A stretch of DNA of 47,690 bases, from NCBI GenBank assembly GCA_965368115.1, contig CBDULQ010000001.1, positions 1 to 47,690 of the forward strand, given 5' to 3'. Positions 2,549 to 25,733 of the stretch are shown piece after piece (position 1 is the stretch's first letter; each line of letters begins with the position of its first letter). This DNA comes from an uncultured Gammaproteobacteria bacterium (GTDB lineage Bacteria > Pseudomonadota > Gammaproteobacteria > SZUA-229). Position numbers and translations under genes: made by a program. The notes under the pieces are model-generated. The model was not told the origin of the DNA. It did not search any database and worked only from the letters and a program-made list of their open reading frames with translations.

Positions 2549-3280
2549 TCAAACCGTTTTACTTTCTTCATCGCGAATGCAGTTCAGGTAAGCCTGTTCC
2601 ATGGTTTCCGCTTCGAACCGTTGCTTGAATTCGTCTACCTGTCCGCTGAAGCGTAATTCACCGCGATGTAAAACCGCCATATGATCCGCCAGCTCTTCTA
2701 CATCGGCCAGCATATGTGAACTGAAAAAAATCGTCGCACCCGCCTGGTTGCTTCGTTTGATCTGTTGCTTGACACTTACACGTGCCTTTGGATCCAGGCC
2801 GCTCATGGGTTCGTCGAGAATGTACAGATCTTTATTACTCAGAAAACAGGCCGCAAGGCCGAGTTTCTGTGTCATACCCTTGGACAGTTCGCGTACCGAT
2901 TTCCGTAACGCGTAAGCATCCAGGTCAAATGATTGCAAAACCTGTTGTACCTGCTCATGGTTAAAACGCCGCCCCTGCAACTCACCCACATATTTGAGGA
3001 AGTCACCGGCTTTCAGATAGTAGGGTGGTACGAAACGATCGGGTAAATAGGCGAGGTGTTCACGTGCGCTAACCTGGCGATTGTTGTTTCCAAACAGAAC
3101 ACATTCGCCGCTGTCCATGGCAACAAGATCCAGCATGGATTTGATCAATGTGGATTTTCCGGCGCCGTTCTCACCCACGAGTCCGAAACAGCTACCGGCT
3201 TCGACATCCAGACTCACGGCATTTAAAACCGTCTGCTTTGCATAGCGAATCGATATCGAACGACAGGAAATGGCTTTCAT
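2549..3280 (-). CDS. ABC transporter ATP-binding protein (ABC-2/NosF/CcmA-like)
   Basis: 243 aa. Walker A 'GENGAGKST', signature 'LSKGMTQK', Walker B 'LYILDEP', H-loop 'SSHML'. Confidence 0.85.
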   Translation of the reverse strand: MKAISCRSISIRYAKQTVLNAVSLDVEAGSCFGLVGENGAGKSTLIKSMLDLVAMDSGECVLFGNNNRQVSAREHLAYLPDRFVPPYYLKAGDFLKYVGELQGRRFNHEQVQQVLQSFDLDAYALRKSVRELSKGMTQKLGLAACFLSNKDLYILDEPMSGLDPKARVSVKQQIKRSNQAGATIFFSSHMLADVEELADHMAVLHRGELRFSGQVDEFKQRFEAETMEQAYLNCIRDEESKTV

Positions 3281-3352
3281 TATTTTAGTTCTGGTCAGTC
3301 ACCGGTGGCTGTGCTGTTAGCATACTCGAAGCACCCGATTTCCCAAAGCAAC

Positions 3353-3380
3353 AAAAAAGCCTGCTAAAGCAGGCTTTTTT
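3353..3380 (-). terminator. Rho-independent (bidirectional-looking) terminator after the major pilin gene
   Basis: aaaaaAGCCTGCtaaaGCAGGCTttttt: 7-bp GC-rich stem, 4-nt loop, A-run and T-run on either side. Lies 21 nt past the pilin stop. Confidence 0.6.
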
Positions 3381-3400
3381 ATATTCAGGCATTGCGGCAA

Positions 3401-4060
3401 TTAAAAATTACGAAACACCGCAGCACAACGATCGATACCCGGTGTGTAGTTCGGCGCTCCCGCAGTACAGGCTGCGACGTTCTGTGCTCCACCACCACCT
3501 GCAGCAAGACGCATGCTGCCTGAGTCAGTACGACCATCATCGATCTTGCGATCAACCTCGGCCAGGATATCGGAAGGTATACCGTTACCGGACAACAACT
3601 CGTTACTGGTTGCTGTGTTGCCGCCCAGGTTGGCGAAAGTAATCACCATGCCGGTACCGAAACCATTATCGGGACAAGTGCCCACGACACAGTTGAACGT
3701 ACTACCGAAACCCGCGCCATCAAAATCACCCGAGATGAAACCGGCACCGGCCAGCTGTACCCAGACCTGGGTGCGGGTACCGTTGTTTTCGATGGTGCCG
3801 TCACCATCGCCATTGGCATAAGCGACCGGACCTGCCGGCAAACTGTTGGTCGCATCGTTGAAGTCACCGGGCAATGCGCGGTAGCGATCCTGAAATGCAA
3901 ACCAGGCTGCGGTCACGCCATCCACCTTGTTGGTCAGTGCACGCGCACGCGCGGAATTGATCAGCTCCTGACCTTTCAGCACACCACCCAGTAACAGGCC
4001 AATGATGACCAGGACGATGGCGATTTCGATCAGCGTGAAACCAGACTGAGACTTCTTCAT
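3401..4060 (-). CDS. Type IV prepilin / pseudopilin, probable major subunit
   Basis: 219 aa. Class III signal 'MKKSQSG|FTLIEIAIVLVIIGLLLGG' with Glu5. Gly-rich C-terminal half, 4 Cys. Good SD (ggagag), its own 143-bp upstream region and its own terminator. Confidence 0.85.
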   Translation of the reverse strand: MKKSQSGFTLIEIAIVLVIIGLLLGGVLKGQELINSARARALTNKVDGVTAAWFAFQDRYRALPGDFNDATNSLPAGPVAYANGDGDGTIENNGTRTQVWVQLAGAGFISGDFDGAGFGSTFNCVVGTCPDNGFGTGMVITFANLGGNTATSNELLSGNGIPSDILAEVDRKIDDGRTDSGSMRLAAGGGGAQNVAACTAGAPNYTPGIDRCAAVFRNF

Positions 4061-4092
4061 TCGACTCTCTCCAGAATTCTTTATTCGTTAGT

Positions 4093-4122
4093 TATATAGT
4101 TCAAAAATCAACACTTTACCAA
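4093..4122 (-). promoter_or_regulatory. Candidate sigma-70 promoter for the pilin gene
   Basis: Minus strand reads TTGGTA-18 nt-TATATA about 30 nt upstream of the pilin ATG. Picked by eye only. Confidence 0.25.
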
Positions 4123-4203
4123 GGCACTTTGGCGATTCCTGCGATTTCTGTCGTTTACAGTAATAATTCCTGTTAACCCCCTGATTTAAAGGGCAAAATA
4201 AAG

Positions 4204-4887
4204 TTAGTCAAGCGCAGCTAAACGTTGCTCCAGGAAGCGAATTTCAGCCGCATCACTGATCTCACCCTGGGCCAGTAGACCGCCGATGAGAATTTTTGCC
4301 GCTTCTTTCTCACCCATGTCTTCCAGAATCAGGATACGCAGGTCTTTGGCCCAGTAAGGCACATCGACTCCGGCCAGTTCGGCCAGGGTGTTGGCATACT
4401 TCAACGCGAGTGGTTTATCGTTCAACTCATGCTGCGCCTTGATCGCCGCATGGGCCAGCCAACGCCAGCGGGTTTGCGGTTGCTCGAGGGTTTTCTCCGC
4501 AACGAAATCGAGCATGATTCTGACCCGCCGCGGATCATTCACCTCGCTGTACACATGGCTGGCGACCAGCAATGGATAATTGTCATTCGGGTCCAGTTGC
4601 AGGCTCAGATTCAGCCACTGCACCAGGCGCTCGTAATCCAGCTCGCGAAACGGCACACTGATACCCGGCTGGTTGTCGTGTGCCTGCAACCATAAATCGA
4701 GCAGGCGCGCAGCGAGTATGGGATCGCCCAGCGTCGTCAACGCATACACCGACGTTGGCAAGGGTCTGGTCAGCGGCTGGTAAGTCGGCTGTGGTTGTCG
4801 ATCAAACCAGAACAGTTGCGCCAGCAGGGCCACCACTAACAGCAACCACACGCCTGTAGGTACATGATGTAAAGGCCGCTGTTTCAT
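4204..4887 (-). CDS. Membrane-anchored helical-repeat protein of unknown function (last gene of the filament operon)
   Basis: 227 aa. Single N-terminal TM 'GVWLLLVVALLAQLFWF', remainder helical and TPR-like in character. Start overlaps the upstream permease stop (ATGA). Confidence 0.7.
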   Translation of the reverse strand: MKQRPLHHVPTGVWLLLVVALLAQLFWFDRQPQPTYQPLTRPLPTSVYALTTLGDPILAARLLDLWLQAHDNQPGISVPFRELDYERLVQWLNLSLQLDPNDNYPLLVASHVYSEVNDPRRVRIMLDFVAEKTLEQPQTRWRWLAHAAIKAQHELNDKPLALKYANTLAELAGVDVPYWAKDLRILILEDMGEKEAAKILIGGLLAQGEISDAAEIRFLEQRLAALD

Positions 4888-5660
4888 GCGCTGATGTTCT
4901 TACGGTGAAAATCGACCAGGGCTACAGCCGATAACAGGGGGATATAAATCACCGCCTGTATCAACATGGCGGTAACCGATTGTGTGGTGTAGTCGCCATA
5001 GACCAGCCAGCTGGTCTGGCTGAAGCGGTCGAGTGCGGGTAACAAGACGTGAAGTAGCGAAAAGAATCCGTCGATGAACCGCTGGCCCAGGCTTTCACTG
5101 GTTACCAGGGGCCCTTGTGAAACCAGTACAATGGATTCAAGTGTTCGGGCCAGCAGGTAAAATAATAACACGCTACCCAGTCCTGCCAGCACGTGTCGAA
5201 AGCTGAAGCTTGCCACAAGGCCGAGACAACTCACGAGGGTCAGTTCAAACCAGTAACTCAGCGACCAGATTAATACTCCGCTACTGTCGGCATACAGACT
5301 CAGCAGCAATCCAAACGCAACACTGATCAGCAGGCTTAGAATCATGAACCCGCCCAGTTTGCCAAGAAAGTGTCCGGTTCTGGAAATCGGCAATGCCAGC
5401 ATGAACTCCAGCGACTTATCCTGCTGATCGCGAATGCCGGAGGATACAATCAAAGTCGCCAGTAGACCGATACCACTATAACGCAATAAATTACTCAGAA
5501 TCGCCAGCTGTATCTGGCGTTGATCGGTAATGGCAATATCAGCAACGAACTCGGTCACTGCGAAAGCGCTGATTAAAAAAATCGCCAGCATCCATAGCAG
5601 CCGATTTCTCACCGCTTCGATAAACGTATATTTGGCGATCACCCTGATCTGTCTGAACAT
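4884..5660 (-). CDS. ABC-2 family permease (NosY/GldF/PilI-like)
   Basis: 258 aa, about 6 hydrophobic spans. N-terminus 'AKYTFIEAVRNRLLWMLAIF' is typical of ABC-2 permeases. Confidence 0.75.
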   Translation of the reverse strand: MFRQIRVIAKYTFIEAVRNRLLWMLAIFLISAFAVTEFVADIAITDQRQIQLAILSNLLRYSGIGLLATLIVSSGIRDQQDKSLEFMLALPISRTGHFLGKLGGFMILSLLISVAFGLLLSLYADSSGVLIWSLSYWFELTLVSCLGLVASFSFRHVLAGLGSVLLFYLLARTLESIVLVSQGPLVTSESLGQRFIDGFFSLLHVLLPALDRFSQTSWLVYGDYTTQSVTAMLIQAVIYIPLLSAVALVDFHRKNISA

Positions 5661-5666
5661 AATTTG

Positions 5667-6431
5667 CTACAGCTGGCCTGCATCCAGTAGTTTATTGAAT
5701 AACACGGTCGGCGCTATCCAGATAATCACATCATCGAATTCCTGGGCAGCTGCCCGACTTGGATTGCGTGAAACATAACGGTCGTCATTCGATAACCCGT
5801 AATTTGGCAACCCGCAGTTTGATGCAATGTTCGCTTCGCCCGCATTTTCATTTTCATTGGCGCTGGCAAAAGTCGCCCAGTTCTTTCCGGTGGAATAGAT
5901 GACCGCAACGGCATTATCATTGATCGAGTTTGCGCAGGCTGAATCGGGACATATTTGCAGGTTGTTAGTTGCCATGAGTACAGCTACATTGGCCACACTA
6001 ACGCCTGCTGGATTACTATAAACATTATTCGTCGAGGTCGTGATACTGTACCGGTAGGGTTGTCCCCAGGGATCGGTCAACAACTGATCACAATTGACAG
6101 CGCCGCTTAAACCCAGGGTAGCCGCCGGAACAAAGCCCCGACCGCCATTTGTACAGGGAGTCGCCGGTGTCGAGCCTCCAGCCGGATTTTCACGACCCAG
6201 CGAATTCGGATCTGCCGGGCAGGGTAGACGACCATTCGCCAGCGCAAATCCATACAATGCCTGACGAATCTGGTCGAGCTGTCTGGATGCTTCCGCGACA
6301 TAACGTTTCTCCGATTGACTGCCCAACGGAATAATCAGATAGCCAATCATCAAACCAACCACCACCAGGACCACTGCCAGTTCGATCAGACTAAAACCGC
6401 GCTGACTTCGAATTGTTGATGTCATAGACAT
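5667..6431 (-). CDS. GspG-like pseudopilin with prepilin N-terminal methylation motif
   Basis: 254 aa. 'QRG|FSLIELAVVLVVVGLMIG', GspG-type 'DPWGQPYRY' motif, 'GRLPCPAD' motif, 6 Cys. Confidence 0.8.
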   Translation of the reverse strand: MSMTSTIRSQRGFSLIELAVVLVVVGLMIGYLIIPLGSQSEKRYVAEASRQLDQIRQALYGFALANGRLPCPADPNSLGRENPAGGSTPATPCTNGGRGFVPAATLGLSGAVNCDQLLTDPWGQPYRYSITTSTNNVYSNPAGVSVANVAVLMATNNLQICPDSACANSINDNAVAVIYSTGKNWATFASANENENAGEANIASNCGLPNYGLSNDDRYVSRNPSRAAAQEFDDVIIWIAPTVLFNKLLDAGQL

Positions 6432-7933
6432 TGCACCACACTCATATTTTCCTCAATACAGAATGCGACATCATTCATTGTTGCGTTCATGTAAGTGGCA
6501 TTGCCATTCAGATCGGGATAGTTACCCGGGTTGCTACCTTCCAGGTAGTTGGAAAGCACCGATTTGGTATCGACATCGATCGGGTCAACGGTACGAATCT
6601 GCCCGGCCAGTCTAGAACCGGAGTAAATGACGATGGCTGCATAATCTTCACCACCGACGATAATACAGTTGGTGCAGGCACCGTCAGCCGGTGTCGCCGG
6701 TAATCCTGCTGATGATGCAAAGTCGCCGGATACGGCATAAAAAAAGTGATCTTTCCAGTTCTCCCAGAAACGGCGCTCCGGACTGTTATAGTTTCCGCCG
6801 GGCCCGGCCAGGGCCCCTGTCTGAAAGTTGTTACAATCTGGAATCGCCTTTTCCAGCAGATAATGCGTCGGCCCATTCCCGATATAACCATCACTAATCG
6901 AGACATCAACCGGCAGGCGGCCGAAATAGGAGCCCGCCGTATCCGTCTCGATATACGCCTGGCTATCTCGATAATCGCCAGGATCCGTTGACGCCGGCCA
7001 GGGTAAATGAAAATGACTATTCGAGCCGCCCATGGTCGCATCGTTTGCCTGACCATAGCCTGCAATACAGTCTGCTAATGTTCTTGTTGTATTTTCCATC
7101 AGGGTCTGAAAATCGGGACGCTGACTAATCGCGTCGAATATATCCTGTTGGGTGATACCCACGATACGGTCGTTAATGTTGGTATCGAAAACACTGTTAG
7201 CCGTGGTGAATGTATCGGTCGTATCCACTGCACCACTCAAAGTTTCGTTACCGCCTTCGAGGAAATCCGCGGCAGTGTAATCCATTCCACATAAGCTACC
7301 TGCCGCATGCGTACCATTCTGGCCGGACAAAGCAGGTCCGGGTGCGATGACAACGGCCACCAGCCTGTCGTCAGCATTGCCGCCGATAAGAGGATTACCA
7401 TTCACGTCATTCAAAATAAAAGTTCCATTGCTATCCTGGTTGAGCATTTCGGAGCGCGACAGGCCCGCGGCATTATCCAGGTCATTACGATCATCCGGGC
7501 CGCTATCCTTGTATTCACTCGATACCGCATACCACAAACATTTTCCCGCACCATCCTTGATCGGCTCGACGCCCAGCTCGCCCCAGGGTAATCGCCCCAG
7601 AGCACTCGTATATTGAGCATTACAGGGCGAGTTGGGTTGCCCCTCCACACCGCCGGTATCCGGACAGGGTAGAAAGCCAAACAGCCCGGCATTCGGATTA
7701 CCGGCTGCCGACGCATTGTCGTGATTAAAAACCGCATACGCGATCAATGCCTGTTTAGCCTGCTTGAGCGCATACGATGTCGTTGCTTCCATTTCAGTCC
7801 GAACATCGATCATGTTGATGCTGCGTACAAGATAAGTGGATACCAGCAACACGATTACGATCATGAAAATCATCAGGGCGGCACCCGATTCGCGATATCC
7901 AGAGGCGCTGTCACGTTCCCGGTTCATGATCAT
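6422..7933 (-). CDS. Large Cys-rich minor pilin-like protein (PilX_N/GspK-like N-terminus)
   Basis: 503 aa. 'ESGAALMIFMIVIVLLVSTYLV' hydrophobic N-terminus without the G|F..E motif, 'GFLPCPD' motif, 10 Cys. Confidence 0.7.
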   Translation of the reverse strand: MIMNRERDSASGYRESGAALMIFMIVIVLLVSTYLVRSINMIDVRTEMEATTSYALKQAKQALIAYAVFNHDNASAAGNPNAGLFGFLPCPDTGGVEGQPNSPCNAQYTSALGRLPWGELGVEPIKDGAGKCLWYAVSSEYKDSGPDDRNDLDNAAGLSRSEMLNQDSNGTFILNDVNGNPLIGGNADDRLVAVVIAPGPALSGQNGTHAAGSLCGMDYTAADFLEGGNETLSGAVDTTDTFTTANSVFDTNINDRIVGITQQDIFDAISQRPDFQTLMENTTRTLADCIAGYGQANDATMGGSNSHFHLPWPASTDPGDYRDSQAYIETDTAGSYFGRLPVDVSISDGYIGNGPTHYLLEKAIPDCNNFQTGALAGPGGNYNSPERRFWENWKDHFFYAVSGDFASSAGLPATPADGACTNCIIVGGEDYAAIVIYSGSRLAGQIRTVDPIDVDTKSVLSNYLEGSNPGNYPDLNGNATYMNATMNDVAFCIEENMSVVQCL

Positions 7934-7934
7934 C

Positions 7935-8459
7935 CTAACGATCCTGAGGGGCGTCCGGTTGTGTACCTTCAGGACTTATTTGATCAGGTGGCGATTTTTC
8001 ACGGATCTTCTGCGCCAGGCTGGATTCTTTAATTTCGTAAGTATCCTGGATTTCCCGATCGAATTCGTTCCACACCTGGCCGGGTTTCAGTCGCACTTTC
8101 TGTCCATTGACAAACACCGGCACTTGCTCGCTCTGACCAATGGACTCGGGGTTCACGCGTATTCGTTCATCGATTCTTCGACCTTTCAGGGTATTACCAT
8201 CGTTAACCCAGGCCACATTCGGCGCGCCTTCCCGAATCATGATACCCTTCAGCTCCACCTGCGCAGGCGGTACGACAACTCCGGGATGGGTTTCGGTCTG
8301 TTGTTCATTACCCAGATCCTTGCGACGGCGTTTCGCATCCAGTTGTGCCCGCTCCATAGGCGTCGTGAACAGGCGTTCGAGCTGATTGATCGAAGGCTGA
8401 TCTGCGGCCTGCACCAGGCCGGTACTCAGCAGCAACAGGTACAGTATGCGGCCGCTCAT
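7935..8459 (-). CDS. Periplasmic PilP/MshK/GspC-HR-like protein
   Basis: 174 aa. Signal peptide 'LLLLSTGLVQA|AD'. Beta-rich segments 'VELKGIMIREGAPNVAWVNDG' and 'VFVNGQKVRLKPGQVW'. Function inferred from pattern and context only. Confidence 0.6.
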   Translation of the reverse strand: MSGRILYLLLLSTGLVQAADQPSINQLERLFTTPMERAQLDAKRRRKDLGNEQQTETHPGVVVPPAQVELKGIMIREGAPNVAWVNDGNTLKGRRIDERIRVNPESIGQSEQVPVFVNGQKVRLKPGQVWNEFDREIQDTYEIKESSLAQKIREKSPPDQISPEGTQPDAPQDR

Positions 8460-9079
8460 GAATCATCCTCCGTTTCACCCTGCGCATTCTGCTCATCCAG
8501 GGTTAACCACAATAATTCACACTCACCGACAAAATTGAAGCGGCTGTTGTTATCCAGGACTTCGACACTACGGAAGTTATTCTTCACCCGACAGTTGCTT
8601 ATCAGGCTCAGGCCTTCCGCCTGCTTATTCAGATCCTGCAACAGACCGAATAGATCGCCTTCATGCAGTAACTGAAAATCCAGCTTCATAGTGCTGGCAT
8701 AAATCTCCAGATCATCCAGATCGAGCTGAATGTTGTCCCTGTCGACCAGCTTACGTCGGCTAATATCAAACTTGACCGAGGGTATCCGGCGTTGCTCGGT
8801 CGATTTTTGAATGGTTTCAATCCACTGAATTCGATGCTCGTCACCATAAATTCCACGACGTTCGAGTTGCTCGAACTGTGACTCATAGGCACTCAACAAC
8901 TGTTCCCGGTCCAGCGCCTGCTGATAGCGAGCTTTCGCCTGCACCAGCGTATACTTGCTACGCTTCCAGTTTTCCTCGTACTGCTGGTGATAATATAGAC
9001 CTACACCAACCAGCAGCGCGCTGACAATCAGAGCGACAATGAAATACTGGACCTGACGCTTGATCTTCATCCATTCCAT
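8456..9079 (-). CDS. Bitopic PilO/GspM/MshJ-like assembly protein
   Basis: 207 aa. N-terminal TM 'YFIVALIVSALLVGVGLYY' followed by a coiled-coil and a small periplasmic domain. Overlaps both neighbours. Confidence 0.6.
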   Translation of the reverse strand: MEWMKIKRQVQYFIVALIVSALLVGVGLYYHQQYEENWKRSKYTLVQAKARYQQALDREQLLSAYESQFEQLERRGIYGDEHRIQWIETIQKSTEQRRIPSVKFDISRRKLVDRDNIQLDLDDLEIYASTMKLDFQLLHEGDLFGLLQDLNKQAEGLSLISNCRVKNNFRSVEVLDNNSRFNFVGECELLWLTLDEQNAQGETEDDS

Positions 9080-10650
9080 GCCGCATGCTCCGCCCGCATA
9101 GTGACTGTAAGGGTAAACAGCCCTGAATCTTCACGCGCGACCGGCTGGCTGTCGAGTCCGGCCTGCAAACTCAGATTCGCCGTTGATCGTACATCGATAG
9201 GCAGCTTGTCGATAACAACACGTAACACGTCCTTACGTGCACGCAACACTTCCGCCAGACGATTCACCTGGTCCACCGACTGTCGAATCGTGTCGGCACT
9301 CACCGGTACCCGACCCTTGATTTTGGCAAAATGATTGAGTTGGCGGGCCTGCAATTGTTCGGTATTGATTTTATGCTGCATATTCGGCTGATCCTCGCCG
9401 CGTTCCGGATCGATAGCCTGCCATTCGATTTCACGAATACTGATCAACGACAGATCATGGCCACTCAGGGTATGGCTCAGTTCGACGAAGAATGCCTGCG
9501 GCGAAACCTGTTTGCGTTGTTCGATGTAATTAACCGTATCGACCGTCGCCTTCATCTTCCGCGCCACTTTGAGACGAGGCTCCAGGCGCTTCAATTCCTG
9601 TTCGTAGCGCTCGTCGATACTTGCAGCTTGCTGGGCCAGGATGCCGGCCTCTTCCTGCAGGCGGTTCATGTCGATAAACAGGTAGACCATGGCCAGCAGG
9701 GACAACAGAATCATCGCCTGAGCCGATTGCTGCAACCACCAGCCGACCTGATTACGACGATAGACTTCGAAGTCTTCGCGATTACCATAATGGCCCCGGG
9801 AAAAATGGTCTTCCATGCATAGCTGAGCGAAGATACCGTTTCCGAATGGGCCGCTGATACCCTGGGTATCGACTTTTTTCTCAACCTCTGCCAACCGGTG
9901 TACCGATACTTCACGGAGCGGCGAAGACTGGCATTCGGCCAGAATCGAATCCATGTGCTCATCGCCGGCAATAATATGGATATGCAGAATTTCGTCGAAA
10001 CCGATGTGACGTTTGTTGGTGAGAAAACGTGCCGTCTGGTCAATTTCGTCGGATAGAAACTTGCCGTAGCTGTCGCCTTCCAGGCTGATAGCGGCTGAGC
10101 GGCTGGTCATCAATTTACCGTCACGGAAATAGGTTTGACGAACATTCGACGACACCTGTTGTGAAATCAACAATACATGACCGGAACGCGCATCGATTCG
10201 GCTGAGCACTTTTTTACTGACATGCGGCAAACTCCACATGCCGCTCACCGGCACTTCTTCCGCTTTCATGATGTCGAGCCAGGGGCGAATCAGGTCGATG
10301 TTGGTCAACGCTGACATCAGTACGATGTCATCCCGGCGCCCATCTTCTTCCCGACCCTGTACTTCATGACAGGTATACTGACGACTGCTACGATAGTAAC
10401 GTTCATTCAGTCGTTTAATCACCGCCGCACGGTCGGCGCCGCGTAAATGAGGGATGCTCTCGATACGAAAATCTTCTTCGATCACATCGACAAGCAGTCG
10501 TGCCGATACCTTAGGCGTATTCCGCAGATAATGTCGGAAATCGTCCAGGCCTTCCGAGTCCGGATTGAAATAAAAGGTGCCGGAGAACTTCCCGTTGATC
10601 CAGTGGAATACGGTGAGTCGATGGCCGGAGTAGTAAAATAATCGTTTCAC
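9067..10650 (-). CDS. Bitopic GspL / PilM-PilN-fusion (MshI)-like assembly protein
   Basis: 527 aa, GTG start with aggtgg SD. About 300-aa cytoplasmic domain, TM 'AMILLSLLAMVYLFI', periplasmic coiled-coil and C-terminal domain. Assignment is by architecture and position after gspF. Confidence 0.65.
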   Translation of the reverse strand: MKRLFYYSGHRLTVFHWINGKFSGTFYFNPDSEGLDDFRHYLRNTPKVSARLLVDVIEEDFRIESIPHLRGADRAAVIKRLNERYYRSSRQYTCHEVQGREEDGRRDDIVLMSALTNIDLIRPWLDIMKAEEVPVSGMWSLPHVSKKVLSRIDARSGHVLLISQQVSSNVRQTYFRDGKLMTSRSAAISLEGDSYGKFLSDEIDQTARFLTNKRHIGFDEILHIHIIAGDEHMDSILAECQSSPLREVSVHRLAEVEKKVDTQGISGPFGNGIFAQLCMEDHFSRGHYGNREDFEVYRRNQVGWWLQQSAQAMILLSLLAMVYLFIDMNRLQEEAGILAQQAASIDERYEQELKRLEPRLKVARKMKATVDTVNYIEQRKQVSPQAFFVELSHTLSGHDLSLISIREIEWQAIDPERGEDQPNMQHKINTEQLQARQLNHFAKIKGRVPVSADTIRQSVDQVNRLAEVLRARKDVLRVVIDKLPIDVRSTANLSLQAGLDSQPVAREDSGLFTLTVTMRAEHAAWNG

Positions 10651-10662
10651 AACTCAAACCAC

Positions 10663-11877: not shown

Positions 11878-13604
11878 TACAGTCTGTCCGTCAGGTCGAT
11901 TACACGAGAAATTTCTTCCAGGCTGGTCAGGCCTTCCAGTACCCGAGCCGTCGCATCGTCCGCGAGGTTTCGGTAGCCAGTGGAACGGGTGTATTTCTTG
12001 ATTTCGCCCAGCGTGGCTTTGCGCGCAATCAACTCATCCAGTTCATCATCCATACGCAGTACTTCAATCACCGCGATACGTCCCCGGTAACCGGTACCGT
12101 CGCAATGACTGCAACCCGCCGCTTCATGGATGATCAGCTCGTCGTCAGCATCGACATTGAGCAGTTGCTTCTCGATGGCTTCCGCAGATCGTGGTGTTTT
12201 ACAATGGGCACAGAGTTTACGAATCAGTCGCTGCCCCATGACGCCGATGATGTTACCGGTCATGATGTCGGGCAACACACCGATATCCTGCAGGCGTGGA
12301 ATTGCACCGATGGCGGAATTGGTATGTAGAGTGGAATACACCTGGTGCCCGGTCATTGCAGCACGAAAGGCCATTTCAGCGGTGTCATTGTCACGAATCT
12401 CGCCCACCAGAATAATGTCCGGGTCCTGACGCATCAGCGAACGTATACCATTCGCGAAATCCATACGCACCACTTCGTTGATCGAGGTCTGGCGAATCAT
12501 ATCCATCGGATATTCCACCGGGTCCTCCAGGGTCATGATATTGACCTGCTCGGAACGCACATAGTTGAGCATGGAATAAAGCGTAGTGGTTTTGCCGCTA
12601 CCGGTGGGTCCGGTCACCAGAATAATACCCTCCGGCCTGGCCATCATCAGTTTCAATGTCGACAGGGTTTCCGCATGTATCCCCAGTTCATCCAGCGGTA
12701 CTATGCCCTTTGAACGATCCAGCACACGCAGTACGATGTTTTCGCCGTGGGTTGTCGGTTGTGCGGAAACACGAAAATCCACCGGCCGGCCGCGAATCTG
12801 TAAACTGATACGGCCATCCTGAGGTGCGCGGGTTTCGGCGATGTTCATATTCGACATGACCTTGAGGCGCACCACGATCGCCGACCAGTAGTCCTTGTGT
12901 AGACTACGCACCTGACGCAACACGCCATCGATGCGATAACGTAAACGCAGAAACGCGCCTTCCGGTTCGAAGTGCACGTCGGAGGCGCCCTTTTTCACCG
13001 CATCGGATAAAATGGCATCGACCAGGCGCACCAGCGGCTGGCTGTATTCGTCGCCTTCCGCTTCCAGACTGGCGTAATCGATCTCACCGGTTTCGATTTC
13101 ATGCAGAATTCCATCCACCGACAGTTCATAACCATAGAACTGGTCGATGGCCTGTTTGATTTCACCTTCGCCCGCCAGCAGCGGATTGATTTCGATCTTA
13201 CGACCCACCACGGCGCGAATACGATCCAGCACAACCAGGTTATAGATATCCGTCATCGCCAGATTCAGGCTGCTGGTGTCGGCATCGAAACTGATCGGGA
13301 TGACCGTGTAGCGACTGGCAATATCTTTGGGGATCAGTTTCAGCGCTTCCTGGTCGGGGATGGCATGATCGAGATCGACACTTTCCTTGCCGAGCATTTC
13401 ACCGAGCGCGTCACGCATGATCGATTCGGTAACGAAGCCCAGTGCAATCAACGCTTCGCCAAGCGGCTTGCCGGATTTTTTCTGCTCACGCAGAGCGATC
13501 TTCACCTGATCTTCGGTGACCAGGCCTTTATCAACCAGTTCTTCACCCAGGCGTTTTTTACGCGCCCTGAGTGCAGCGCCGATGTCGGTTATTTGCTCAT
13601 TCAT
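11877..13604 (-). CDS. GspE/PilB-family assembly ATPase with MshEN-type N-terminal domain
   Basis: 575 aa. Walker A 'GPTGSGKT', Asp box, Walker B 'ILVGEIRD', His box, tetracysteine 'CAHC...CSHC'. N-terminal 'RLGEELVDKGLVTEDQVKIALREQ'. Confidence 0.93.
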   Translation of the reverse strand: MNEQITDIGAALRARKKRLGEELVDKGLVTEDQVKIALREQKKSGKPLGEALIALGFVTESIMRDALGEMLGKESVDLDHAIPDQEALKLIPKDIASRYTVIPISFDADTSSLNLAMTDIYNLVVLDRIRAVVGRKIEINPLLAGEGEIKQAIDQFYGYELSVDGILHEIETGEIDYASLEAEGDEYSQPLVRLVDAILSDAVKKGASDVHFEPEGAFLRLRYRIDGVLRQVRSLHKDYWSAIVVRLKVMSNMNIAETRAPQDGRISLQIRGRPVDFRVSAQPTTHGENIVLRVLDRSKGIVPLDELGIHAETLSTLKLMMARPEGIILVTGPTGSGKTTTLYSMLNYVRSEQVNIMTLEDPVEYPMDMIRQTSINEVVRMDFANGIRSLMRQDPDIILVGEIRDNDTAEMAFRAAMTGHQVYSTLHTNSAIGAIPRLQDIGVLPDIMTGNIIGVMGQRLIRKLCAHCKTPRSAEAIEKQLLNVDADDELIIHEAAGCSHCDGTGYRGRIAVIEVLRMDDELDELIARKATLGEIKKYTRSTGYRNLADDATARVLEGLTSLEEISRVIDLTDRL

Positions 13605-15093
13605 GATCGAGCCGTCCTAACTGGTCGATGCGTGTCTGCACCGCTGCCGTGGAAAACTCAACCGTTTGCCGACCGGCCAGTTGCAGCGCCTGGCGGTAGA
13701 TGGGTAGCGCCTGCTGGTATTTACCGAGCTGATCCAGACTGACCGCCAGATTGTATGCGTAGTCTGCATTCTGTTTATCAACGGCCCAGGCATTGAAGAA
13801 CGACTGTTGCGCATCCGGCCAGCGTTGCTGATCCGCATACAGTGCACCCAGTGCAAAATGCAGATGCGCAGCATCGGGCTGTTCGCGCAACATGAACTTG
13901 ATGCTGCTTTCCGAACCAACGTCCTGATCGACGGCACTCAATCCGGCACGCGCGACACTGTCTTTGGGATCCAGCATCAACAGTTGGGTATAACGCGCAC
14001 GAGCCTGCGCGTACTGCTGTCGTTTCATGGCAACAGCGGCCACACCCAGCAGGGCATCACGATTACTGGCTTCACGTTGCAGTACCCGGCGATACAGCTC
14101 GTCCGCTGCATCGTACTGGCCGGCGTTAAAGGAACGGTAAGCACGCGACAATAACAGGTGCAGCGGGTCTTCCACCTGTTTGCGGGTAATTTCCATGGTT
14201 CTGGCCGGCGGCGCGATCCGGGGTTCAGGCTTCGCCTGAACGGCAGGCTGAGGCGGGGCGACCGATGATGCACTCGCCGTCTGTTTCGGTTCACTGTGGG
14301 ACGCCTGAAGCGCTAGTTGGCGAGCTGGTGCAGGCGGTTCGTTTATCGCTTCGCGACTCGATGCATCCCGCTCCGGGGCCGGATGTTGAACCGGTGTGGC
14401 TTGCGGTTGACGTTCCCGCACCTCGGCGATCTGTTGTCGAGAGTCATAATAGAAATAACTGCCACCGACCAGAAGGAAAAACAGGAATACCAGTATCCCC
14501 AGATCACGTAAACGACGGTTACGACGTTCGGTGGCATGACGACTTTTATGAATCATCATGTCCAGAGCGGCACGGGATGCCGGCGTATCCGCCGGTTTGA
14601 CCGGTTCGCCGGGTGGAGGCGTCATCTCAGTTGCTGGCGTAGCAACTTCGTCATCGGTTATGTCGGCGGGATTTCGTGCGACCTCATGTTCAACGGGTGT
14701 ATCATCCGGAACCGGCTCGCTCGGCAAAACCGGCTCATCATTTTCGTCACTGGCCAGTTCAATCGCGTCAGCATCGATCGCAGGTGGTTCGTCAAGCGCC
14801 TTGATCCCGTCGGCCGGTGGTTGGGGTTTCTCACTTAAGGTCGGCAGGTCTTCGCTAAACTCACCGCGAGGTCGTATGGCTTCGTGACCGTCTTCGATTA
14901 ACAGGGCGCTATCGTCCGAATCGGGTTCATCTATGGCTGTTCCTGCTGCCGATTCATCCTGCTCCTGTAAATGCAGTTCAAGTTCAATTTCGTCGTCGCC
15001 AGTCTGTGACCGTGCGGCGGCGTCATCGTCCGGTGTTGTCGACTTCTGTTTATCCTGGGCCGCTTTTTTCAGCGCGTCGAGCAATAGACTCAT
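13597..15093 (-). CDS. GspB/ExeB-like N-terminus, acidic linker, TM and TPR protein (MshN-like)
   Basis: 498 aa. 'MSLLLDALKKAAQDKQ' N-terminus, ~170-aa acidic low-complexity region, TM 'LGILVFLFFLLVGGSYFYY', Pro-rich linker, C-terminal TPR repeats. Confidence 0.8.
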   Translation of the reverse strand: MSLLLDALKKAAQDKQKSTTPDDDAAARSQTGDDEIELELHLQEQDESAAGTAIDEPDSDDSALLIEDGHEAIRPRGEFSEDLPTLSEKPQPPADGIKALDEPPAIDADAIELASDENDEPVLPSEPVPDDTPVEHEVARNPADITDDEVATPATEMTPPPGEPVKPADTPASRAALDMMIHKSRHATERRNRRLRDLGILVFLFFLLVGGSYFYYDSRQQIAEVRERQPQATPVQHPAPERDASSREAINEPPAPARQLALQASHSEPKQTASASSVAPPQPAVQAKPEPRIAPPARTMEITRKQVEDPLHLLLSRAYRSFNAGQYDAADELYRRVLQREASNRDALLGVAAVAMKRQQYAQARARYTQLLMLDPKDSVARAGLSAVDQDVGSESSIKFMLREQPDAAHLHFALGALYADQQRWPDAQQSFFNAWAVDKQNADYAYNLAVSLDQLGKYQQALPIYRQALQLAGRQTVEFSTAAVQTRIDQLGRLDHE

Positions 15094-15102
15094 GGCGGCG
15101 AC

Positions 15103-16704
15103 CTACTGGGTAGACTCGGTTTCAGGCAGGAATCTACGGTAATCGCGAAGGTCGCCGGACAGGCTGGCCTGGCGCACCACCACCGGACGAATGAAGATCA
15201 CCAGCTCGGATTTTTCCCGTTGATCATCTTCGTAGGAAAACAGCTTGCCTATCCAGGGAATGCTCGATAACACCGGGACACCGGTATTGCGTTTGTTTTT
15301 TACGTCCTGCATCAAACCACCGATGACGGCAGTATCCCCGCTGTTAACCTTGAGTACCGACTCGATCTCGCGCACCTGGACCACCGGAATTTCACTCACG
15401 ACCCCGGCATTGGCGAGAGCCGGGTTTGGATCGGCAACGCTATCGATGACTCGTGAAATGGTCGGCCGTACATTCAACGTCACCACTTCCTGTTCATTGA
15501 TAAAGGGCGTCACCGACATCACGAAACCCACTGGAACAGTGTTGATTTCGGTTTCGATGGTGGTTACCGACGCGCTGGTCGATGATGCCGCCGTGGTCTG
15601 CACCTCCACTTCGAAATACACCAGGTTATCGACCACTTTAAGCATTGCGGTCTGATTGTTCAGCGCAATGACTTTTGGGCTGGACAGCACCTGTACATCG
15701 CCGAATTCCTCCAGCGCTTTTAAGGTCAGGTTGAGTGCGTCACCGCTTACGGTATTGGCAATGGTCAGTAAAGAAAACGGCGGCTGGCTCAGATTTGTGC
15801 CGGCCAGATTGGTATTAAAGCTTACACCGTCAGCCGGGTCGGACGCGACCAGCGACCAGTCGACACCCGACTGATAACGATCACTCAGGGTAATCTCCGC
15901 AATGGTCGCCTCGATCAACACCTGGCGTTTAGCGCTGTTGAGCACATCATCGATGAAGGCCTGTACCAACTGGTGCTGTTTATAGGTTGCATTCACCGCA
16001 ATCACACCGGATTCACGATTGACTATAACTCGAGTGGAATCGGGGATGGCGCCGGCCTCCGACTGTTGCGGCAGTTCGCCGAGAATCAGGGCGAGGTTGC
16101 GGCTCAGGGTGGCCCACAACTGGTTGTCGGATTTCATATTCATCACGGTGGTCGAATCGTTACCGGCCGTGCTGGTATTACCCTGTCCGGCTGCAGCACC
16201 GGTTTTACCGACTGATGTGGCGACTGAAACCAGGCCTTCACTGCTGCGCGCCATGTTCAGATAATCGATTTTGTAATTGCGCACATAAGGCTTGTCCGCA
16301 CTCACGCGCAGATTGTCGCCGTCCAGCTCGTAACGAATGTCAGCCTGGCGGGTCAGGCGCTCCAGAATTTGCGGCAGTGTCTGGTCGATGGCATTCAGGG
16401 TCACGTTACCACTGATGTCCTGCCCGATATCGAGATTCAGTTTCGCGTCCCGCGCCATGGAAAACAGCAGCTCCCTGACCGGTACGTCATTCACCACCAC
16501 GGTATAGGTTTCCAGCGGCGGTCGTTGTTCCGGTTCGGGTAACAAAACAGTACGGTTGACCGGCGCGGGAATCGGCGCCGGAATATCTTTAACCTGGTCC
16601 TTGTCCAGATGTCCGGCGGATTGTTCCGGTGGTCTGGCCGGCGAACAGGACAGTAACAGTGTGACAACGACACAGATCGAAAAACATTGCTTGTACAGGT
16701 TCAT
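15103..16704 (-). CDS. Outer-membrane secretin, lipoprotein type (MshL/PilQ/GspD family)
   Basis: 533 aa. Lipobox 'LLLSC', secretin C-domain ('VPVLSSIPWIGKLF', 'ELVIFIRPVVV'). Confidence 0.9.
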   Translation of the reverse strand: MNLYKQCFSICVVVTLLLSCSPARPPEQSAGHLDKDQVKDIPAPIPAPVNRTVLLPEPEQRPPLETYTVVVNDVPVRELLFSMARDAKLNLDIGQDISGNVTLNAIDQTLPQILERLTRQADIRYELDGDNLRVSADKPYVRNYKIDYLNMARSSEGLVSVATSVGKTGAAAGQGNTSTAGNDSTTVMNMKSDNQLWATLSRNLALILGELPQQSEAGAIPDSTRVIVNRESGVIAVNATYKQHQLVQAFIDDVLNSAKRQVLIEATIAEITLSDRYQSGVDWSLVASDPADGVSFNTNLAGTNLSQPPFSLLTIANTVSGDALNLTLKALEEFGDVQVLSSPKVIALNNQTAMLKVVDNLVYFEVEVQTTAASSTSASVTTIETEINTVPVGFVMSVTPFINEQEVVTLNVRPTISRVIDSVADPNPALANAGVVSEIPVVQVREIESVLKVNSGDTAVIGGLMQDVKNKRNTGVPVLSSIPWIGKLFSYEDDQREKSELVIFIRPVVVRQASLSGDLRDYRRFLPETESTQ

Positions 16705-16722
16705 GTGGATCGATTTCCTCGT

Positions 16723-18105
16723 TTATTGCGTCGCGGCCAGACGTGTTTTTTCGATATCGGATCGAATGCCTTTAAGGGTGCGCAGAAACGCACCATCCTG
16801 CCGTAAACGATCCGGCAGCTGTTGCAAACCCCGGGTGGCGGACTGACGATCCGGAAAACGACCGAACAACACGCTATACACCTGCCGACCACCGATCAAA
16901 GCCTGGTACACGAACAGCTGGTCATTCTGCAGATCCTGCGCAGCCTGTTGCAGATACTGCTGCAATGTGGAGTCCGCCCACAGATCGATCAGTGTGAGTT
17001 GAATGGTAAAGTCATCGGCATCCGCATCGTTTAATAATTGCTGCGTCGCCTGCACGCGTTGATCCAGAGTGATTTCCCGATTCGACTGTGGAGGCGGGGA
17101 GACGGTGTCCACTGATTCAGCAACCCCGGCATCATCAACGTTAGCGGCCGTCGGCGTTGCGTTTTTAGCGGCAGGCTGTTGTTCGACTTCGACAAGGGTT
17201 TGACGGGCCTGGGGTAGCAGGGTACCGATCCACACCGCCACACCGATCACCAGCGTTGCCGCAACGGCGAACAGCAACGGACGCAGATTGATCGCGGCAC
17301 CGAAATCGCTATCCTGGGCGGCCAGTGCGATATGTCGGTTCTGCACACAATGTGCGCCGTCGGAATACACCGCCATCAGGGCTTTGTCTGCAAGAATATT
17401 GATGCGTCGTGTCAGGCCGTGGGATTTTTTTTCGATGCTGCGCGCGATGCGCGAAGAAAAAATATCCGGCCCGCGATAACCCACCGCGCGCATACGAAAA
17501 TTCAGGTATTCGTAAATATCCTGGCTGGGAAATGGATCCAGGTAAAAACTGTGAGTAATGCGTTCCTTGAGCTGGCGAATACTCGGTTCACGCAGCGTCT
17601 GGTCCAGTTCGGGCTGGCCGAACAGCACCATCTGCAATAATTTATGATCGGCGGTTTCCAGATTACTAAGCAGACGAATCTCTTCCAGGGTTTCGATCGG
17701 CATGCTCTGCGCTTCTTCTACGAAAACTACCACCTGCTTACCCTGAGCATGGCGCTCGACCAGATAATTCTGTAACTGTTGCATCACTTCCAGCCGACTC
17801 GATTCGTTGTCGATGGCCAGTTTCAGTTCGAAGGCGATGACATGCAGAATGTTTTCCGGTGACAGGCTGGGGTTGGCAATGTAGACGATCTCGATCTGAT
17901 CCGGCAGTTCGATTTCCAGCATGCGGCAGAGCATGGTTTTACCGCTGCCCACTTCACCAACCACCTTGATAATCCCCTCGCCACTCACAATGGCGTACTT
18001 GAGCGCTTCCAGTGCCGCACCCCGACGGTTGCCGGTGTAAAACAGGCTGGTGTCCGGGGTGATTTTGAAGGGCTGGCGTTGCAGACCGAAATGCTCGAGA
18101 TACAT
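16723..18105 (-). CDS. ExeA/GspA/MshM-like AAA+ ATPase with TM and C-terminal SPOR-like domain
   Basis: 460 aa. Walker A 'GEVGSGKT', Walker B 'VVVFVEEAQ', TM at residues ~275-297. C-terminus 'FTIQL...VYSVLFGRFPDRQSATRGLQQLP' resembles the DamX-type SPOR fold. Confidence 0.88.
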   Translation of the reverse strand: MYLEHFGLQRQPFKITPDTSLFYTGNRRGAALEALKYAIVSGEGIIKVVGEVGSGKTMLCRMLEIELPDQIEIVYIANPSLSPENILHVIAFELKLAIDNESSRLEVMQQLQNYLVERHAQGKQVVVFVEEAQSMPIETLEEIRLLSNLETADHKLLQMVLFGQPELDQTLREPSIRQLKERITHSFYLDPFPSQDIYEYLNFRMRAVGYRGPDIFSSRIARSIEKKSHGLTRRINILADKALMAVYSDGAHCVQNRHIALAAQDSDFGAAINLRPLLFAVAATLVIGVAVWIGTLLPQARQTLVEVEQQPAAKNATPTAANVDDAGVAESVDTVSPPPQSNREITLDQRVQATQQLLNDADADDFTIQLTLIDLWADSTLQQYLQQAAQDLQNDQLFVYQALIGGRQVYSVLFGRFPDRQSATRGLQQLPDRLRQDGAFLRTLKGIRSDIEKTRLAATQ

Positions 18106-18410
18106 GGTGTTTACCCTGGTTGACGGACAGGTTCAGTCACTATTACGGATGGGCAATCCCTGACTCTCATCGCATGCGATAGCGTATAAATTGACTATAG
18201 GTGATGGCTGATCGATAGTGGCCATCGCCGGAACCCAATGTCTGTTATCCGCTGCCCGTCTCCGCTATTTCGAGACATAGCGACAGTACCCAATATAAAT
18301 AGTGTTCTAGTGGGTATTTAGACGTTGGTCCGAAATTAGTCAATAATTAACGAAGCGTATTTATTTTCATGCTTGAACACTCTTCCATAACCTTTTGAAA
18401 ATTCACCATA

Positions 18411-24950: not shown

Positions 24951-25733
24951 ATGGAACGATTCAAATACATCGTTCAGTCACTACTGCTGTTAATGGTGTG
25001 TAGTTCCGCGAACGCCGCGGACCTGGAGCGCGAACAGCGCCTGAAGAACCAGATCATCGATTACATCCTGGATGGTGATCCGGTCATGCTGACGGCCGAC
25101 CAGCATGAATTTCTGAGTATTTATCAGCCGGCGGACGATGCGGATTCAACATTCGGTATGGTCCTCATGCACGGTCGCGGTTTTCATCCCAACTGGCCGG
25201 AAGTGATCTATCCCCTGCGCACCAGGCTACCTGCGGATGGCTGGCACACCCTGTCCATCCAGATGCCGGTTCTCGATAATCAGGCCACCTTTTATGACTA
25301 CCTGGACATCATTCCGCAAGCTTTCCCGCGCATTCAGGCCGCCATCGATTATCTCGTCGCACAGGGTGTGAACCGCATCGTATTGCTGGCGCATTCCTGC
25401 AGTGTACACATGAGTGTGGCCTGGCTGGCACAACGCGGCGATCCGCATGTAATCGGTTTTATCGGCGTTGGCATGGGCTCCACCGACAAGGGTCAGCCGC
25501 TACCCGAGCCGCTACCGCTGGACAAGCTGAATGTGCCGGTTCTCGATGTGCGCGGTGAACACGATTATCCCGCCGTGCACGGTCGCGCCCCGGAACGCTG
25601 GCGCTACCTGCAGAAAGCCGGTCAGGCCGGTTCAAGGCAGCTTGTTGTCGAGGATGCGGACCATTACTTTCGCGATCGCGGAGACGTGCTGCTGAATGTA
25701 GTCGAAGACTGGTTGCGGCAATTCAAACCCTAA
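24951..25733 (+). CDS. Secreted alpha/beta-hydrolase-fold protein (possibly DUF3530 family)
   Basis: 260 aa. Signal peptide 'LLLLMVCSSANA|AD', 'VLMHGRGFHPNWP', 'LLAHSCS'. Family assignment is tentative. Confidence 0.6.
   Translation: MERFKYIVQSLLLLMVCSSANAADLEREQRLKNQIIDYILDGDPVMLTADQHEFLSIYQPADDADSTFGMVLMHGRGFHPNWPEVIYPLRTRLPADGWHTLSIQMPVLDNQATFYDYLDIIPQAFPRIQAAIDYLVAQGVNRIVLLAHSCSVHMSVAWLAQRGDPHVIGFIGVGMGSTDKGQPLPEPLPLDKLNVPVLDVRGEHDYPAVHGRAPERWRYLQKAGQAGSRQLVVEDADHYFRDRGDVLLNVVEDWLRQFKP

Follow-up and report, generated by a model that had tools for sequence, protein, structure and literature searches.

Nearly all work on pili of the mannose-sensitive haemagglutinin (MSH) type concerns Vibrio and Aeromonas, and these two genera account for almost all of the literature in which the four gene names mshL, mshM, mshN and mshE occur together. 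The MSH system was described only as the clade around the Vibrio system, and its definition comprises five genes that are mandatory (mshA, mshE, mshG and mshL, plus mshM), a single locus, no prepilin peptidase gene and a 'loner' pilin (PMC6668835). It is also established that MshE of V. cholerae, the assembly ATPase, is controlled and activated by cyclic di-GMP (c-di-GMP; PMC4624765). Observations made on other type IV filament systems bear on the locus described here as well. In Myxococcus xanthus the ATP-binding cassette (ABC) transporter genes pilG, pilH and pilI lie beside pilA in the type IVa pilus cluster (PMC3724824; PMC6060248), and deletion of pilG, pilH or pilI results in cells without pili (PMC3724824). 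Among minor pilins, the PilK/GspK homologues invariably lack the glutamate at position +5 (Glu5), and a large protein that resembles minor pilins, CpaL, acts as a tip adhesin (PMC13533445). The locus in question occupies positions 2549–18105 of a 47,690-nucleotide stretch (the window) of contig CBDULQ010000001.1, which comes from the assembly GCA_965368115.1 of an uncultured gammaproteobacterium. In our view a complete type IV pilus machine, of a lineage related to MSH, is probably encoded here in one single locus, and it serves most likely for surface attachment. The core of this machine appears to be of the MSH type, yet not canonical MSH, and to belong to a monophyletic sister lineage with a gene order of its own.

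On the minus strand, from position 18105 down to 4204, a six-frame list of open reading frames (ORFs) gives 12 ORFs that are separated by 1–18 nt (18, 9, 12, 1 and 6 nt) or overlap by 1–13 nt (at 13597–13604, 11877, 9067–9079, 8456–8459, 6422–6431 and 4884–4887). A gap of 143 nt lies between this block and the gene of a 219-aa prepilin, and another 120 nt separate the prepilin gene from the ORF at 2549–3280. The arrangement of 12 coupled genes and a detached pilin gene agrees exactly, in coordinates, strand and junctions, with a first-pass annotation of this DNA that was made from its letters alone. The list of parts given there was also essentially right, as judged by the Pfam and NCBIfam calls along the block (AAA_22 with SPOR, secretin, tetratricopeptide repeat (TPR) families, T2SSE with MshEN, and T2SSF), although one of the 14 genes, the last ORF, had been left without a name and is the ATPase of an ABC transporter. 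Pfam N_methyl was found in two proteins, of 254 and 219 aa, and the whole 47.7-kb window contains only two canonical prepilin N-termini of the form G/F(T/S)LIE (six-frame motif scan; the slash marks the leader cleavage site). The features are collected in Table 1.

Table 1. Predicted features of the MSH-related locus, in the order of transcription (window coordinates; TM, transmembrane segment).
Feature	Position	Strand	Basis and remarks
MshM-like AAA+ ATPase, 460 aa	16723..18105	-	AAA_22 2.4e-29; SPOR 23.2 bits vs cutoff 21
MshL-type secretin, 533 aa	15103..16704	-	TIGR02519 pilus_MshL equivalog 266.7 bits vs cutoff 250.2
MshN-like bitopic TPR protein, 498 aa	13597..15093	-	TPR families; TM 195-216; TPRs C-terminal
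Assembly ATPase, MshE/PilB/GspE family, 575 aa	11877..13604	-	T2SSE 1.3e-128; MshEN 1.4e-15
Platform protein, MshG-like, inner membrane, 404 aa	10663..11877	-	T2SSF 1.7e-50
527-aa bitopic alignment protein	9067..10650	-	AlphaFold2 and Foldseek: PilM/GspL fold
207-aa bitopic protein, PilO/GspM/MshJ position	8456..9079	-	N-terminal TM 8-32; always after the 527-aa gene in relatives
174-aa secreted protein, PilP/GspC-HR/MshK position	7935..8459	-	Signal peptide; position kept in relatives
Variable cassette	5640..8022	-	End of 174-aa gene, 503-aa and 254-aa genes, start of permease gene
503-aa pilin-like protein	6422..7933	-	N-terminal helix, Cys-rich head, no Glu at +5; proposed apical (tip) subunit
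254-aa prepilin (G/FSLIE)	5667..6431	-	N_methyl 3.5e-6; GspG-like DPWGQPYRY motif; proposed minor pilin
ABC-2 type permease, 258 aa	4884..5660	-	ABC2_membrane_2 17.9 bits (weak); several TM segments
227-aa helical-repeat (TPR-like) protein, membrane-anchored	4204..4887	-	N-terminal TM 8-30; conserved ABC partner
219-aa prepilin (G/FTLIE), proposed major pilin	3401..4060	-	N_methyl 7.2e-8; C-terminus CAAVFRNF
Intrinsic terminator, 3' of the 219-aa pilin gene	3351..3382	-	Hairpin AAAAAAGCCUGC-UUUA-GCAGGCUUUUUU
ABC transporter ATP-binding protein, 243 aa	2549..3280	-	ABC_tran 2.4e-23

Such a run of ORFs is not a product of chance, because the identical order recurs in dozens of independent genomes. 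When the 14 window proteins were mapped onto 83 fetched loci, the synteny comparison that the first-pass annotation had proposed gave one conserved order: MshM-like ATPase, secretin, TPR protein, assembly ATPase, platform, the 527-, 207-, 174- and 503-aa proteins, the 254-aa prepilin, (a histidine kinase), ABC permease, the 227-aa protein, the 219-aa prepilin and the ABC ATPase. This order is kept across more than 40 loci and includes the ABC genes except in one subclade. In gammaproteobacterial loci the block often has the same neighbours, being flanked by spoU/gpsA at one end and by ntrBC at the opposite end. In a metagenome-assembled genome (MAG) of Magnetococcales the machine genes follow the same order, and an ABC ATPase gene adjoins that of a prepilin; on a contig from a soil metagenome the order is complete, down to the ABC permease gene and a gene for a 227-aa-like protein. 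The extent of the family was followed with the 527-aa protein, for which 179 indexed homologues were found, all of them 'hypothetical' and all from uncultured Gammaproteobacteria; a profile search of 1.84 billion representatives gathered 2,203 clusters (50% identity) at E<=1e-3. When each GTDB species was represented by one genome, the protein was found in 177 genomes, nearly all of them MAGs, that are labelled Gammaproteobacteria, Thiotrichaceae, Arenicellales or Cellvibrionaceae, with a few Betaproteobacteria and a single isolate, Duganella sp. The carriers that can be cultured include Duganella sp. S19_KUP01_CR8 and a Sulfuricella relative.

The relation of the core to MSH was assessed by equivalog models, by BLASTP against reference proteins, and by neighbor-joining (NJ) trees with 100 bootstraps and few references, among which only two represent MSH. 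One is the locus of Aeromonas caviae (L086), with the order mshH-I-J-K-L-M-N-E-G-F-B-A-C-D-O-P-Q next to mreB, and the other lies on a replicon of Legionella adelaidensis (L087), where the pilin genes are followed by I-J-K-L-M-N-E. The Aeromonas record (NZ_AP026896.1, 4.94 Mb) is filed as 'plasmid pKAM479_3' and is evidently the chromosome, as the msh locus stands beside mreB. The secretin passes the equivalog of MshL, and it fails the models of GspD (166.6 vs 351), PilQ (126.7 vs 284.35) and SctC by far; its BLASTP scores are 152 bits with Aeromonas MshL, 105 bits with HofQ and 89 bits with GspD. The platform protein likewise scores higher with Aeromonas MshG (192 bits) than with E. coli GspF (168 bits) and stays below the GspF equivalog (323, cutoff 424). 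In the secretin tree the family and MshL are separated from GspD and HofQ with 100% bootstrap, in the platform tree the family joins MshG with 92%, and in the MshM tree it adjoins canonical MshM, GspA being remote. The family is monophyletic with 100% bootstrap in all trees except that of MshM, where it is split from the references with 74%. For secretin, platform and MshM it is the sister of, and lies outside, the Aeromonas and Legionella clade in these NJ trees with two MSH references, in keeping with the earlier statement that it could not be assigned to a characterised subtype.

The main rival of this interpretation is a type II secretion-like machine, in which a short periplasmic pseudopilus, made of the 254-aa protein as a GspG-like subunit and capped by the GspK-like 503-aa protein, would drive folded proteins out by way of the secretin, without a long fibre being formed. 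We judge it unlikely. The assembly ATPase speaks for it, since its scores for GspE, PilB and MshE are about equal: the best BLASTP reference is Aeromonas MshE (361 bits, full length), followed by GspE (326 bits); the GspE and PilB equivalogs give 518 (cutoff 630) and 511 (cutoff 675.65), and in the ATPase NJ tree the split that decides between MshE, GspE or PilB affinity has 41% bootstrap. On the other side, the secretin, the platform and the AAA+ protein all fall together with MSH and are set apart from the Gsp references, and the GspD, GspE, GspF and GspG equivalogs all stay well under their cutoffs. The same holds for the rest of the type II secretion system (T2SS): besides a GspL-like fold and one pilin without Glu5, its set of GspC, GspH/I/J/K and GspL/M has no counterpart at the locus, with no similarity to GspC, GspH, GspI, GspJ or GspM and no GspC protein with an HR or PDZ domain. 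Although the superfamilies of ATPase, platform and secretin are shared with T2SS (Gsp/Eps/Xcp), the term 'T2SS hybrid' that had been used for the locus was thus overstated. The type IVa pilus does not fit either: PilB and PilQ are below cutoff, the secretin tree sets the family apart from HofQ, the window has no PilT, and the PilM-like fold is present but fused. A match to the 'atypical T2SS' of Geobacter was set aside in view of the gammaproteobacterial origin of the window and of the evident MSH affinity.

The features by which MSH is defined are found in the locus. All five mandatory genes have counterparts (judged by equivalog and BLAST proxies), all components lie within 2549–18105, the gene of the proposed major pilin stands apart as a 'loner', and the N-terminus of the assembly ATPase passes the model of the MshE-type c-di-GMP motif (NF053729, 64.9 bits vs cutoff 38). 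The motif, RLGEELVDKGLVTEDQVKIALREQ, lies at residues 18–41 and was recovered in 46 of 67 orthologues with a strict regular expression, so that the ATPase N-terminus may be expected to bind c-di-GMP. The likeness to canonical MSH pili (MSHA of V. cholerae, the Bfp pilus of Aeromonas) covers the MshL secretin, the MshM ATPase, the MshN TPR protein, MshE with its motif, the MshG-like platform and the confinement of everything to one locus without a prepilin peptidase gene.

One may ask whether the locus is not simply an ordinary MSH pilus, whose differences in order and accessory genes are trivial drift, which TXSScan would call MSH, and whose ABC genes are unrelated neighbours. Apart from the mandatory genes and from the missing peptidase gene, which is absent from all MSH loci, this reading can point to the Aeromonas MSH proteins, which give nearly the same pattern of Pfam and NCBIfam scores as the core proteins of the window, and to canonical MshI and MshK, which are also nearly invisible to Pfam. 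It nevertheless appears improbable to us. For all four core proteins the family lies outside the clade of the two MSH references, and it keeps an order of its own across the loci, M-L-N-E-G-I'-J'-K' (the primes mark positional equivalents), whereas the canonical order is I-J-K-L-M-N-E-G-F; the difference from mshIJKLMNEGF(-BACDOPQ), noted already at first pass, was confirmed against the Aeromonas and Legionella loci and is seen in all loci of the family. The canonical accessory set (MshH/I/J/K, MshF, MshB/C/D/O/P/Q) is not found here, and BLAST and hhalign gave no similarity to MshI, MshJ, MshF, MshO, MshP or MshQ beyond pilin N-termini. The absence of MshB/C/D/O, and of GspH/I/J, had been recognised correctly and extends to MshP and MshQ; in place of the MshB/C/D/O/P/Q tip set the locus has one 503-aa protein without Glu5 and one 254-aa prepilin. 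Its alignment proteins have no detectable similarity to MshI or MshJ, its MshM-like protein is extended by SPOR and a TM segment, an ABC-2 transporter surrounds its major pilin gene, and most members of the family have a sigma54 two-component pair.

The secretin has the lipobox LLSC at residues 17–20 (read from the translation) and is probably a lipoprotein. For the AAA+ protein an ExeA/GspA-like identity was expected and was ruled out by BLASTP in favour of an MshM-like one: it is 44% identical to Aeromonas MshM over 270 aa, while E. coli GspA is matched in the Walker A stretch only (E=0.02). Its layout is nevertheless that of ExeA, with an ATPase domain, a single TM segment (residues 268–300, by hydropathy) and a C-terminal peptidoglycan-binding domain, here SPOR, which was detected in 12 of 27 orthologues, and this layout counts in favour of the T2SS-like reading. 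Canonical MshM, in contrast, is of about 295–303 aa in the Aeromonas and Legionella references and has no such TM-SPOR extension. What the locus has in common with ExeAB/GspAB is that an AAA+ ATPase, bitopic and equipped with a domain for binding peptidoglycan in the periplasm, is encoded beside the secretin together with a second bitopic protein; the MshM-type ATPase domain, the SPOR module and the MshN-like TPR partner set the two apart. The partner begins with MSLLLDALKKA, a motif present in 52 of 56 orthologues that resembles the N-termini of canonical MshN from Aeromonas (MSVINQMLKDL) and Legionella (MSLLNEMLKDL).

Between the platform gene and the pilin genes lie three genes in the positions of alignment proteins. 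The 527-aa protein has no sequence match in Pfam, NCBIfam or PDB, and an exact-match look-up of it was empty. Its AlphaFold2 model, with a predicted local distance difference test (pLDDT) score of 80.9, shows an actin-like domain in the cytoplasm, a TM segment (308–331), a long helix in the periplasm and, at the C-terminus, a small alpha/beta domain; its best Foldseek matches are PilM of P. aeruginosa (E=3e-11) and the cytoplasmic domain of V. cholerae EpsL (E=3e-8). The earlier GspL/MshI-like designation was thereby substantiated at the level of a PilM/GspL-type fold. The fused cytoplasmic-TM-periplasmic layout is that of GspL, and EpsL gives the highest TM-score when normalised by target length (0.57–0.64), both of which favour a T2SS-like machine. 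At the level of profiles the 527-aa and 207-aa families show no similarity to MshI/J, GspL/M or HofM/N/O, by hhalign (with E. coli GspL/M/C/K and HofM/O/P and with Aeromonas and Legionella MshI/J/K as references) or by a PDB profile search, which returned noise. By its position and topology the 207-aa protein may be the counterpart of PilO/GspM/MshJ; one of its 29 orthologues matches GspL_C at 2e-4. Position and topology likewise suggest that the 174-aa protein corresponds to PilP/GspC/MshK. In hhalign it has weak matches to MshK (E=0.005 over 49 columns) and to the HR region of GspC (E=0.047), and a scan of every member of its family at E<=5 gave no consistent Pfam family.

The pilins are few, which would suit a pseudopilus, and so would the DPWGQPYRY motif of the 254-aa prepilin together with its weak T2SSG match at residues 115–134. 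The GspG equivalog gives 46 bits for this protein (cutoff 88.85), and a PDB profile search finds GspG and geopilin via the N-terminal helix only. For the 219-aa prepilin a PDB profile search gives a match with PilE of N. meningitidis that extends over about 100 residues (E=1.3e-4), and the first 30 residues of its mature form, the alpha-1 helix, are invariant across the alignment of the family. We favour a fibre over a pseudopilus, since this pilin is PilE-like with an invariant alpha-1 helix and its gene has its own terminator and, in 24 of 32 relatives, its own sigma54 promoter; a separately transcribed pilin of this type resembles the major pilin of an extended fibre and stands, like the lack of candidate exoprotein genes linked to the locus, against T2SS-like secretion. 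Formation of a fibre by the MSH-related machine is what we infer from these features.

The intrinsic terminator downstream of the 219-aa pilin gene has a folding free energy of -23.6 kcal/mol (z=-3.47; none of 200 shuffles folds as well). A consensus promoter and terminator scan of the window, which was no better than shuffles, overlooked it. The claim that the pilin gene is a transcription unit of its own therefore stands for the 3' end, while at the 5' end no consensus promoter was found upstream of the gene in the window. Most relatives (L003, L007–L018, others, L095) have a PilSR-like two-component pair: the gene of its sigma54-dependent response regulator lies upstream of the mshM-like one, and that of its histidine kinase is placed between the genes of the 254-aa prepilin and the ABC permease. 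In 24 of 32 loci a sigma54 site TGG(T/C)A(T/C)-N5-TTGC lies 84–206 nt upstream of the codon at which the pilin leader is cleaved. The regulator, the kinase and the site are absent from the window (2549–18410) and from its close relative L001. Both retain the CTATATAA block (at about 4086–4093, minus strand, in the window), and in the alignment the -24/-12 element that follows this block in relatives is missing; the lineage of the window has lost regulator, kinase and sigma54 site. The sequence TGGTAAAGTGTTGAT (4107–4121, minus strand) was considered as a decayed sigma54 site and rejected, as the alignment shows the CTATATAA block kept and the -24/-12 element gone; a sigma54 consensus search of the window gave fewer matches than chance. 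The pair and the promoter of most relatives also speak against the ordinary MSH reading.

The 503-aa protein has an N-terminal motif QxGxALL and many invariant cysteines, conserved in 40 homologues. Its AlphaFold2 model (pLDDT 82.9; predicted TM-score 0.83) has a 60-residue helix at 13–72, by which alone the protein matches GspK in hhalign; for the head Foldseek found no structural match in the PDB at E<=0.001, and a PDB profile search with the family returned noise only. It shares with GspK, PilX and MshP, and with CpaL of Tad systems, a hydrophobic N-terminal helix without Glu5, a large extra domain and adjacent pilin genes, but neither GspK nor any other PDB entry matches its head in structure, and GspI/J-type partners are absent. 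We read it as a putative apical subunit because PilK/GspK homologues lack Glu5 and because CpaL provides a precedent; its size and the replacement of its gene between close relatives point the same way. The replaced segment can be delimited by comparison with L001: two collinear flanking blocks are 88–90% identical, and the stretch at 5640–8022 shows zero nucleotide similarity to the corresponding segment of L001 (12629–14625; blastn). The L001 segment encodes proteins of 384 and 239 aa that are 27–32% identical to the 503- and 254-aa proteins. This stretch appears to be a swapped minor-pilin cassette, and its divergence is as expected of exposed, diversifying parts. In the soil metagenome relative L095 a protein of 1,005 aa without a Pfam match occupies the 503-aa position (13021–16038), and the size of the putative tip protein therefore varies twofold or more across the family.

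The ABC genes, whose presence inside the locus was noticed at first pass, proved to be a conserved part of it. The label of ABC-2 permease is clear for the orthologues, of which 20 of 21 match ABC2_membrane_3 or ABC2_membrane_2 (best E=2e-11), the window copy itself giving a weak match. The 227-aa protein, with a weak match to designed TPR proteins (E=0.0018), belongs to a family of 1,646 homologues, none of them named and none with a Pfam domain, and its gene lies always between the permease and pilin genes in relatives. The ABC ATPase, which matches DrrA/GldA-type subfamilies below their cutoffs, is kept directly after the pilin gene with 50–55% identity. All 24 loci with the motif CPDNGFG or CAAVFRNF in their pilin carry the module, and none of the 7 loci with the other pilin type does, a correlation that amounts to two or three independent evolutionary events. 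In distant loci, too, the ABC genes are found at the same places about the pilin gene, and their presence follows the pilin subtype, against the view of the ordinary MSH reading that they are unrelated neighbours, whereas the subclade without them agrees with that view. From the linkage and the co-variation we infer that the ABC-2 transporter may act on, or assist, one subtype of major pilin. The closest analogy, in gene content and position, is PilG/PilH/PilI of M. xanthus, where the gene of the major pilin likewise has genes for an ABC ATPase, an ABC-2 type permease and one more membrane protein next to it; there, however, the host machine is a type IVa pilus and the gene order is different.

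ABC-2 transporters often export glycans, and it may be imagined that the filament machine and the transporter together export a cargo other than a pilus, such as a polysaccharide or a polymer linked to lipid, the pilins serving as a piston. The GldA/DrrA-type resemblance of the ABC ATPase may be cited for such a function, and so may the best NCBIfam match of the MshM-like protein, the model of an XrtA/PEP-CTERM-associated ATPase (208 bits, below cutoff). This match is, however, uninformative, because canonical Aeromonas MshM gives it too (232.6 bits), and glycosyltransferase, Wzx/Wzy and exosortase genes were found neither in nor beside the locus, in the window or in relatives. Polymer export is in our opinion very improbable.

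For the pilus machine of the MSH-related lineage the following model can be proposed. The 219-aa major and 254-aa minor prepilins and the 503-aa protein, all with N-terminal signals, would be inserted into the inner membrane, and the prepilins would be cut by a prepilin peptidase encoded elsewhere, as is typical for MSH. Binding of c-di-GMP to the MshEN motif would switch on the MshE-like ATPase, upon which the MshG-like platform could polymerise the pilins. The 527-aa protein, by its fold, and presumably the 207- and 174-aa proteins would link the motor to the lipoprotein secretin, which the MshM-like protein and its MshN-like partner may help to assemble through the peptidoglycan, by analogy with ExeAB. 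At the tip the 503-aa protein would prime the assembly and display its variable, Cys-rich head outside, and the ABC-2 transporter (permease, ATPase and 227-aa protein), whose genes bracket the major pilin gene, could help to handle or export that subtype of pilin, as is reported of PilGHI in M. xanthus. A bolder formulation, which we advance tentatively and with some doubt, is that of an unrecognised subfamily, sister to MSH and widespread in uncultured Gamma- and Betaproteobacteria and Magnetococcales, where the ABC-2 transporter would be the dedicated and obligate partner of one major-pilin class and a single large pilin of novel fold, without Glu5 and exchanged between strains as a cassette, would replace the tip complex of I/J/K/Y1 type.

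Several points weigh against the interpretation as an MSH-related pilus. The trees on which the affinity is based have few references, and the one of the ATPase is weakly resolved. All homologues are annotated as 'hypothetical'. No Peptidase_A24 domain was found among the 34 ORFs of the window that were scanned; the absence of a prepilin peptidase, which the first-pass annotation had reported as an oddity, is real, and it is expected rather than anomalous because MSH loci generally lack one (PMC6668835). There is also no PilT retraction ATPase in the window. The 207-aa family has no significant match in Pfam (every member, E<=5), PDB or hhalign, and the 174-aa protein has no significant similarity to PilP, GspC or MshK references, so that the labels PilO/GspM and PilP/GspC given to them earlier were confirmed by no sequence method. 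The tip model is incomplete because GspI/J-type partners are missing. Finally, one whole subclade of the family has no ABC genes, and few independent events underlie the association of these genes with the pilin subtype.

The locus reveals a large sister lineage of a pilus known almost entirely from two genera, and this lineage occurs mainly in uncultured marine, sediment and groundwater proteobacteria, for which it is probably a main device of surface attachment. What is new is that alignment proteins, a tip protein, a peptidoglycan anchor, regulation and an ABC partner of its own are arranged around a known MSH-type core. The family offers comparative leverage on the role of pilus-linked ABC transporters such as PilGHI, since here the transporter co-varies with the pilin subtype, and on the minimal tip or priming complex, which here would consist of one minor pilin and one giant pilin without Glu5. 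With a confident model and no PDB neighbour, the head of the 503-aa protein is a candidate for a new adhesin fold. The general picture of type IV filament function is left unchanged, and the locus extends it in a useful, not a startling, way.

As for the genomic setting, the genes that flank the locus are housekeeping ones (ntrBC, spoU, gpsA, secB, atp, parAB, rsmG, mnmG, mnmE and yidC) and the base composition of the locus equals that of the remaining window, hence the region is regarded as a chromosomal, origin-proximal part of a gammaproteobacterial genome and not as an island. Elsewhere in the window, between mnmG and mnmE near the replication origin region, lies a gene with a HipA_C domain (toxin kinase-like; 43320–44651, minus strand) in a patch with a guanine-cytosine (GC) content of about 0.46, against 0.53–0.58 around it, and it may be an inserted toxin-antitoxin module. 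Large genes for a DUF3570 protein (E=3.6e-106; 26581–28026, minus strand) and a DUF3530 protein (24951–25733, plus strand) are situated with protease genes on one side and the atp operon on the other. A pair of Polbeta-type nucleotidyltransferase and HEPN domains is frequent in toxin-antitoxin and defence modules, and an ORF that encodes both domains (28223–29080, plus strand) adjoins glmU in a dip of GC content to about 0.50.

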